A DNA stretch of 4,791 bases from a virus (taxonomy: Duplodnaviria; Heunggongvirae; Uroviricota; Caudoviricetes): the IMG/VR virus record IMGVR_UViG_2737471846_000007; one strand, written 5' to 3'. The position numbers were made by a program, and so were the translations under genes. Shown here piece by piece: positions 872-1,429 of the stretch (position 1 is its first letter; each line of letters opens with the position of its first letter). The notes beneath the pieces were generated by a model. That model was not told where the DNA came from. It searched no databases and saw only the letters and a program-made list of their open reading frames with translations.

Positions 872-1429
872 TCATGCAGCCTCCCGACGGGCAAGAATCC
901 TTGAGCCGAACGCCATCAACTCTCCACGATCAACGGTCGTAAAGTGGCAGTGTGTACGGGGGTATGGGTGCCAGATAATGAGCATCGAGCCTTTATTATT
1001 TCCACTGACGGGTTTCTCAGTGAGTGGGTTAATAAATGCCAGTCGTCCTGCCGTGATGAATCTGACCTCACTGGCGGTTTGTATCGCTTCATGAAACCAT
1101 CCGACAGATGTGTCAGCAGGCAATAACATTACACATCCCACACTACTGAATTTGTTTTCAGTGGCTGCCTTTTTCACAAAAGGGGAAATATTGCTGTATG
1201 GTGGATTCAACCAGACATAACCAGAGGCATATCCCATTGCTTCAGGCCATGAAGTGGTTAATGTGTTCTGCTCCTGTGAGATAAAAAGCCGACATAGTCG
1301 GTTTTTTTCGCTGGCGGCAGCATCAAGTTGAAAAACGAACTCTGCATGAAGCGCAGCAAAAATCTCTGGTGGTGTGCGCCAGCTGTCGCGATGTTCGGCA
1401 GGAGTATTGCTTCCGGTGAAATCAGTCAT
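872..1429 (-). CDS. Phage-type DNA N6-adenine methyltransferase (Dam family, ~185 aa)
   Basis: Protein contains the N6-adenine MTase catalytic motif IV NPPY (VWLNPPYSNI) in an N-terminal position typical of small phage Dam-like enzymes; GGGGG SD-like run upstream of ATG 1429-1427; stop TGA 874-872. Confidence 0.85.
   Translation of the reverse strand: MTDFTGSNTPAEHRDSWRTPPEIFAALHAEFVFQLDAAASEKNRLCRLFISQEQNTLTTSWPEAMGYASGYVWLNPPYSNISPFVKKAATENKFSSVGCVMLLPADTSVGWFHEAIQTASEVRFITAGRLAFINPLTEKPVSGNNKGSMLIIWHPYPRTHCHFTTVDRGELMAFGSRILARREAA

Follow-up and report, generated by a model that had tools for sequence, protein, structure and literature searches.

A lambdoid phage carries, in its leftward early (pL) operon, a gene for a small N6-adenine methyltransferase (phage Dam family, PF05869) in the exact place of orf63 of phage lambda, the exchange running from the start codon through the stop codon. 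The window analyzed here (4,791 nucleotides of a Caudoviricetes virus, IMG/VR record IMGVR_UViG_2737471846_000007) consists of that operon, encoded on the minus strand. The enzyme is supported as an orphan, very probably modifies the adenine of GATC, and would likely act as a delayed-early supplement to the host Dam methylase. The evidence for the replacement is given first, followed by that for the enzyme and its carriers, its solitary status and target, and its expression and possible roles.

Replacement of orf63 in the leftward early operon

The genes of the operon and the signals discussed below are collected in Table 1. Sequences on both sides of the methyltransferase gene (18/286-875 and 1427-4321) are 96-99% identical to those of lambda and of phage ev243, and only the interval 876-1426 differs. 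The counterpart of this interval in lambda and ev243 is orf63 (DUF1382), with a length of 185 bp. At the upstream junction the sequence GGGG(A)GCTGT-ATG is common to both alleles, such that the methyltransferase begins at the start codon of orf63. The ribosome-binding region is nearly identical to that of ev243 through the ATG, with one single-base gap in the run of G residues. At the downstream junction both alleles have ATGA, followed by identical sequence.

Table 1. Features of the window, listed in the direction of transcription of the operon
Feature	Coordinates	Strand	Basis or remark
149-aa protein, phrog_3054, no Pfam match	4333-4782	minus	ORF and profile searches
Ea10/DUF2528 protein	3769-4137	minus	ORF and profile searches
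cIII and kil	between Ea10/DUF2528 gene and gam	minus	ORF and profile searches
gam, short form	3048-3344	minus	Red module, upstream in same operon
bet	2257-3042	minus	Red module, upstream in same operon
exo	1580-2260	minus	Red module, upstream in same operon
orf60a homologue (DUF1317, E 2.8e-33)	1422-1589; likely start ATG 1581-1583	minus	ORF and Pfam
Terminator-like hairpin inside orf60a, upstream of methyltransferase	1497-1519	minus	Identical to predicted t1 of lambda/phi24B (PMC4195576)
Ribosome-binding region, GGGGG 5-9 nt before ATG, shared with lambda/ev243 orf63	1430-1440	minus	Junction alignment
Methyltransferase CDS (PF05869 / TIGR01712)	872-1429; stop TGA 872-874, start ATG 1427-1429	minus	Profile matches and 100% identity to WP_032207486.1
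Mosaic segment, 551 bp, replacing the 185-bp orf63 segment of lambda and ev243	876-1426		Alignment
F33-Q-L-D36-A-A-A39-S, probable degenerate motif I (SAM-binding loop)	1310-1333	minus	Conservation and AlphaFold model
Catalytic motif IV, N75-P-P-Y78	1196-1207	minus	Read from sequence; conserved in 94-100% of 109 members
27-aa hydrophobic small ORF (MTTTECIFLAAGFIFCVLMLADMGLVQ)	792-875	minus	ATGA overlaps with methyltransferase stop and orf61-like start
orf61-like gene, 71 aa from ATG 793-795, open frame to 894	580-795	minus	phrog_303; same coupled chain
Terminator-like hairpin between orf61 and TraR/orf73-like gene	541-559	minus	Predicted t2 of lambda/phi24B, one base differs in T tail (PMC4195576)
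TraR/DksA zinc-finger gene (TraR/orf73-like)	263-481	minus	ORF and profile searches
DUF4222 gene	15-215	minus	ORF and profile searches

The reading frames around the insertion are joined by overlapping stop and start codons. The ATG of orf60a overlaps the stop codon of exo as ATGA, and the last 8 nt of orf60a (ATGACTGA) overlap the start of the methyltransferase gene. The chain of exo, orf60a, methyltransferase, 27-aa ORF and orf61 is thus linked successively by the overlaps ATGA, ATGACTGA, ATGA and ATGA. Since orf60a precedes the methyltransferase gene and orf61 follows it, orf63 alone was replaced. The methyltransferase gene therefore took over the place of a single gene, lambda orf63, and reuses its ribosome-binding site, start position and ATGA coupling. 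The original prediction had considered orf60a, orf63 and orf61 all to be displaced; this holds for orf63 only, the other two being still in place (orf60a by its DUF1317 match, orf61 as a homologue downstream). The short coupled ORF that had been seen to join exo and the methyltransferase gene (1422-1583/1589) does overlap both neighbors, and is itself the orf60a homologue.

The new occupant and the old one share the slot, the position of the start codon, the ribosome-binding site and the stop/start coupling. In contrast to the methyltransferase, lambda Orf63 is an unrelated, dimeric, pro-lytic protein of 63 aa with no enzymatic domain (PMC10869804). Yet another content was observed in a lambdoid prophage of E. 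coli 300444 (L011, 1071-3504), where the slot after orf60a holds a 414-aa gene of the PAPS-reductase family, together with a divergently transcribed class I SAM methyltransferase and a gene of unknown function. The orf63 slot thus looks like a hot spot for cargo of the DNA-modification type.

Several further differences from lambda were apparent in the window. Similarity to lambda stops at 4321, and the 149-aa protein fills the place of the ral region. The gam gene carries a 1-nt insertion relative to lambda near 3357 (3345-3465, minus strand), upstream of the internal start, which disrupts the frame of the 138-aa long form of Gam and leaves intact only the short form of 98 aa. The reference orf61 of lambda (61 aa) is frameshifted, with A7 versus A6 in the window (A-run near 727-733; lambda locus L010, 3340-3525), while the longer orf61 is intact here (71 aa from the ATG at 795, in an open frame of 104 aa). 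Its product is sometimes called "cell division protein ZapA" by PGAP. The strongly hydrophobic 27-aa ORF (792-875) has the same sequence in lambda and ev243, where it is unannotated. It overlaps, in another frame, a possible N-terminal extension of orf61, and in view of this overlap probably just one of these readings is genuine.

The methyltransferase and its carriers

The ATG-started ORF at 872-1429 (minus strand) encodes 185 aa. By sequence, the product belongs to the phage Dam family (PF05869, HP1/T1 type), as a small, SAM-dependent N6-adenine methyltransferase of DNA with a single domain. The Pfam Dam profile covers residues 6-177 with positions 1-168 of its 169 (E 3e-56, 190.2 bits; cutoff, 28.1 bits). 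The NCBI equivalog TIGR01712 (phage_N6A_met, "phage N-6-adenine-methyltransferase") gives 163.7 bits, above its cutoff of 97.05 bits. The protein also matches phrog_111 ("DNA methyltransferase") at 2.5e-77, and the best PADLOC model is that of an orphan methyltransferase (oMTase, 1.1e-31). The near full-length Pfam match, together with the NPPY motif read from the sequence, confirms the original assignment of a 185-aa Dam-family N6-adenine methyltransferase, and the proposed alignment to the Pfam family produced a match across essentially the whole profile.

The residues expected of an active enzyme are present. In an alignment with 109 diverse family members, all 24 columns conserved at 80% or more are retained in the window protein, including W17-x-T19-P20, F33, D36, A39, N43, W61, N75-Y78, W111, G128-R129, F132 and N144; the loss of catalytic or cofactor-binding residues, which would have argued against the prediction, was thus not observed. 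Assignment of the SAM-binding motif is less direct. A canonical FxGxG motif I was not found in the PF05869 family alignment, and in a published study of 936 phages only NPPY was recognizable in the family member M.Phi93DAM (PMC4190342). Because the family is without this canonical motif, we infer the SAM-binding loop from conservation and from a predicted model: 87-97% of the 109 members share F33, D36 and A39, and in an AlphaFold model of moderate confidence the loop F33-S40 is preceded by a strand (31-35), as NPPY is preceded by another (70-74). The loop around D36 after the first strand is thus the probable SAM-binding loop. The search for this motif yielded a conserved F-x-L-D-A-A-A-S loop after the first strand, but no FxGxG. 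In fold comparison the predicted model is a class I SAM-methyltransferase, closest to N6-adenine methyltransferases. The sole match in a sequence search of the PDB, CutA (E 0.28), was dismissed as chance.

Public annotation already recognizes the gene, which is of a widespread and unremarkable phage type. The PGAP coding sequence WP_032207486.1 ("phage N-6-adenine-methyltransferase") is 100% identical to it, and the same label was given in 15 of the 15 records listed. The family as a whole was detected in 2,058 of 50,697 phage records, and its proteins form 8,306 clusters when grouped at 50% identity. At an identity of 95% or more, the DNA of the gene occurs in 312 of 5,426 complete E. coli genomes (∼6%), always on the chromosome, and 244 E. 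coli genomes carry the full arrangement of orf61, methyltransferase, orf60a and exo. One deposited phage carries the gene, the plaque-forming PhiR30_1 (47.4 kb; recorded host, E. coli C), at 99.8% identity. In E. coli 2013C-4830, a prophage located beside icd is 99.85% identical over the window and 100% identical over the methyltransferase gene.

More distant homologues (65-83% identity) are distributed across Enterobacter, Klebsiella, Citrobacter and other Enterobacteriaceae. One of them, 79% identical and belonging to a Rac-like prophage, stands alone between a different recombination module and TraR-xis-int. In five other proteins of 284-691 aa, homologues that are 47-74% identical form the C-terminal domain, following an N-terminal C5-cytosine methyltransferase (PF00145); these represent natural double-methyltransferase fusions in enterobacterial prophages.

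Some of the carriers show signs of decay. The 2013C-4830 prophage (L001, 16259-28834) is degraded, with IS3 insertions (beside xis and after cro), a frameshifted ral remnant further upstream, and fragments in place of late genes, of which none remain; its pL operon, methyltransferase included, is intact. Of the 312 E. coli matches, 68 fall short of 80% coverage of the gene, and in at least one case a truncated copy adjoins a replication gene. Such features would be compatible with a non-functional passenger decaying in a defective prophage, but the gene in the window has an intact frame and all of its conserved residues, its counterpart in a plaque-forming phage is nearly identical, and homologues are conserved across many Enterobacteriaceae. 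Comparison with the homologue of the Rac-like prophage gave a pN of 0.13 versus a pS of 0.81, which indicates that purifying selection, and strong selection, acts on the gene; only pN and pS are given, rather than a formal dN/dS, since synonymous sites are saturated at this pS. In light of the integrity and selection data, decay is extremely unlikely.

Solitary status and target

The original prediction had seen no restriction endonuclease in the window, and indeed none of the ORFs was found to be endonuclease-like in Pfam, PHROG and PADLOC profile searches. Extension of the search beyond the window gave the same result: annotation shows no endonuclease from int to cI in the 2013C-4830 prophage (40-kb context) or anywhere in the 47.4-kb genome of PhiR30_1, and nuclease domains were not found in the unannotated immunity-region proteins of either. 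One 310-aa protein in the immunity region of PhiR30_1 matches no family, and a nuclease could be hidden there. The swap, being one gene wide, left no room for a partner gene. The methyltransferase is thus supported as an orphan (solitary) enzyme, and classification as a type II restriction-modification system was rejected, as no linked endonuclease was found in the window, in the 2013C-4830 prophage or in PhiR30_1. The 310-aa protein belongs to a gene pair of PhiR30_1 (L009, 5577-6931, minus strand), which occupies a rexAB-like position between kil and cI and also encodes a 141-aa DUF6932 protein. The pair may represent an exclusion or defence module.

By analogy with its relatives, the enzyme very probably methylates the adenine of GATC. 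This target is extrapolated, since the nearest experimentally tested relatives are 35-49% identical to the window protein, and none exceeds about 49%. The protein is 38-47% identical to the Dam proteins of HP1, T1 and the nin region of Stx phages, which are 32-37% identical among each other. HP1 Dam (orf13) is the founding member of PF05869 (E 7e-75 versus the Pfam model). It resembles the window protein in its size (173 aa), in 37-38% identity and in the lack of a partner endonuclease, but is encoded by a P2-like Haemophilus phage, where the gene ends the early replication operon. HP1 Dam is reportedly specific for GATC.

The closest relative to have been discussed is the nin-region Dam of Stx phages, located between ninB and ninE. 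It is likewise a lambdoid orphan of PF05869 (about 175 aa, 47-49% identical), although it lies in the rightward pR/nin region, as opposed to the leftward exo-xis region. This PF05869 gene is probably that of M.EcoVT2Dam. GATC is given as the target of M.EcoVT2Dam, an orphan encoded by the Stx prophage VT2-Sa (PMC6602927).

T1 Dam (YP_003925.1, orf20), another orphan of PF05869, has NPPY, W-x-T-P and D36 at matching positions, and within the domain common to both it is 44% identical to the window protein. In contrast, it is longer (237 aa), carrying 45 additional residues at the N terminus and an insertion of 14 residues, and its gene belongs to a virulent siphovirus and has its own Pir/CRP-regulated promoter, rather than being part of a lambdoid pL operon. 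The T1 enzyme methylates GATC in a dam- host. In a dam+ host, too, deletion of its gene has an effect: T1 DNA is then only partly methylated, and the burst falls from about 52 to about 32, or to ∼60% (PMC10470545). The lactococcal M.Phi93DAM, also of PF05869 and 35% identical, shares only NPPY as a recognizable motif; it is shorter (140 aa, without the C-terminal approximately 35-45 residues) and is encoded in the packaging module of a virulent 936 phage of a Gram-positive host. Its product was shown by SMRT sequencing to be G6mATC, and it protects against DpnII (PMC4190342). Both of the verified members of PF05869 thus target GATC, one in a Gram-negative and one in a Gram-positive host, which supports the same target for the window enzyme. 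The original view of the target motif as unknown was therefore too cautious, given T1 Dam, M.Phi93DAM and the similar report for the Stx-phage homologue. The Dam proteins of E. coli and T4 and DpnM, on the other hand, belong to a different family (PF02086, alpha class), and the host Dam is unrelated in sequence to PF05869.

A specificity other than GATC, either for a new motif or relaxed, would confer broad protection against restriction. The modest identity to the tested relatives leaves room for this reading, the C5-cytosine methyltransferase fusions of close homologues suggest multi-target protective methylation, and non-specific phage adenine methyltransferases do exist (PMC3299994, PMC7556043). 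Hia5/Hin1523, M.EcoGI/GII, phiP27 L24 and PhiOS31_p25 are, like the window enzyme, prophage-borne orphan m6A methyltransferases with an anti-restriction role, but they are larger (about 300-350 aa), of relaxed specificity and, where evidence exists, of other families. Hia5, phiP27 L24 and M.EcoGII-like enzymes were consequently rejected as models: phiP27 L24 belongs to PF01555, and Hia5, by its description, is related to Dam and has FxGxG as motif I. The two verified members of PF05869 also argue against a different motif, as does the architecture of the protein, which is without a separate, variable target-recognition domain and whose C-terminal half includes residues (R129, F132, I133, N144 and K146) that are invariant among the window, HP1, T1 and Stx-phage enzymes. 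A target other than GATC is thus improbable. Depletion of GATC was also considered as a clue to specificity and was discarded as uninformative: observed/expected ratios were 0.59-0.78 in all five sequences, a range that spans PhiR30_1, T1 and HP1 as well as phiP27, in which the PF05869 family was not found.

Expression and possible roles

The methyltransferase gene is continuous with the gam-bet-exo operon, on the same strand and with no intervening promoter-like site; together with the overlapping stop and start codons from exo to orf61, this agrees with the earlier placement of the gene in the pL operon, chained to exo. No promoter-like sites were found on the minus strand of the window. In total, the window contains 5 such sites versus 7.1 +/- 2.8 in shuffles, and since this count is below that of the shuffles, the plus-strand sites at 869-898 and 1173-1202 were given no weight. 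Terminator-like sites, in contrast, numbered 13 versus 4.3 +/- 2.1 in shuffles. Those matching the predicted t1 and t2 of lambda and phi24B (Table 1) lie before and after the methyltransferase gene, whereas a hairpin within its ORF (1301-1289, minus strand), with a stem of only 5 bp, was judged a chance match. In lambda, orf60a-orf63-orf61 are transcribed about as strongly as N after infection, and transcription is lower beyond t2 (PMC4195576); by this analogy, the hairpin at 541-559 would mark the end of the strongly transcribed block. The hairpin between exo and the methyltransferase gene makes expression dependent on antitermination, which is assumed from lambda. The N gene and a LexA-type repressor are located upstream in the 2013C-4830 prophage, and prophage orphan methyltransferases are usually silent in lysogens (PMC4659465). 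By analogy, expression would be that of a delayed-early gene, with silence in the lysogen.

On the basis of sequence and analogy, the enzyme is likely a delayed-early, pL- and N-dependent "top-up" Dam for replicating phage DNA. The methyltransferase would be silent in the lysogen. Upon infection or induction, it would be transcribed from pL on the gam-bet-exo-orf60a message, which would pass the hairpin in orf60a under N antitermination, and it would be translated by coupling to orf60a. Rapidly replicating phage DNA would thereby be kept fully methylated at GATC, where the limited host Dam lags. The progeny would be shielded from GATC-specific, methylation-sensitive nucleases in the next host, growth in dam-poor hosts would be allowed, and the yield would probably be improved, as in T1. 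The benefit of a second GATC enzyme in a Dam+ host is, however, not obvious, and the effect on burst size was measured in T1, whose biology, as that of a lytic phage, is different.

A GATC target would also confine the anti-restriction value of the enzyme in Dam+ E. coli to a narrow range, namely to GATC-cutting, m6A-sensitive enzymes and to under-methylated, fast-replicating DNA. The anti-restriction role originally proposed may thus hold against GATC-cutting, methylation-sensitive enzymes, but not as general protection; the broad kind, afforded by non-specific phage methyltransferases, belongs to families other than PF05869 in those cases with family evidence.

In another role, the methyltransferase would act mainly as an epigenetic regulator, either of host genes or of the choice between lysis and lysogeny, and would functionally replace the pro-lytic Orf63. 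The exactness of the replacement would suit such a role, as Orf63 promotes lytic development (PMC10869804), and the stability of lysogeny in the Stx phage 933W reportedly needs the host Dam, for which the Dam of phi24B was proposed as a supplement (PMC3342100). The repressed pL position argues against expression in the lysogen, however, and no Dam-sensitive regulatory site was identified. Moreover, the presence of a PAPS-reductase-family gene in the same slot elsewhere implies that occupancy of the slot does not entail a shared function. We consider regulation of this kind very unlikely.

The position of the gene behind the Red module has prompted a further reading, in which full methylation of GATC removes the hemimethylated signal for MutH, Red recombinants escape MutSLH, and exchange between diverged lambdoid phages is favored. 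The methyltransferase shares a translationally coupled operon with gam, bet and exo, the 79%-identical homologue of the Rac-like prophage lies just after a different recombination module, and in TM-MAGE the co-expression of Dam during oligo recombination by lambda Beta brought replacement near the efficiencies of MMR-deficient cells (PMC4770203). The support consists only of gene position and this engineered precedent. Relatives occur elsewhere, e.g., in the Stx nin region, among the packaging genes of 936 phages and behind the replication genes of HP1 and T1, and these unrelated locations signify that linkage to recombination genes is not a trait of the family. In addition, most lambdoid prophages have orf63 in the slot (2,939 complete E. 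coli genomes versus the 312 with the methyltransferase). Evasion of mismatch repair in this manner is unlikely, and it is a little less likely still that the enzyme is a natural partner of Red, coupled with Gam, Bet and Exo, through which the MutH strand signal would be lost and diverged recombination would not be aborted.

In itself, the methyltransferase gene matters little: it is correctly annotated and belongs to a very large family, whose tested members are GATC methylases. The point that is new, and only modestly so, is the codon-exact allelic replacement of orf63 in the exo-xis block orf60a-orf63-orf61-orf73, which has been called largely invariant in the literature (PMC10869804). With a presence in ∼6% of complete E. 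coli genomes, the methyltransferase allele is relevant to studies of Orf63 function and of the exo-xis region in STEC prophages. The occurrence of a Dam-type enzyme in the Red operon provides a simple, testable link between phage methylation and the evasion of mismatch repair in recombination. If the enzyme were truly a partner of Red, it would be a natural counterpart of the Dam-plus-Beta combination of TM-MAGE and a driver of lambdoid mosaicism.
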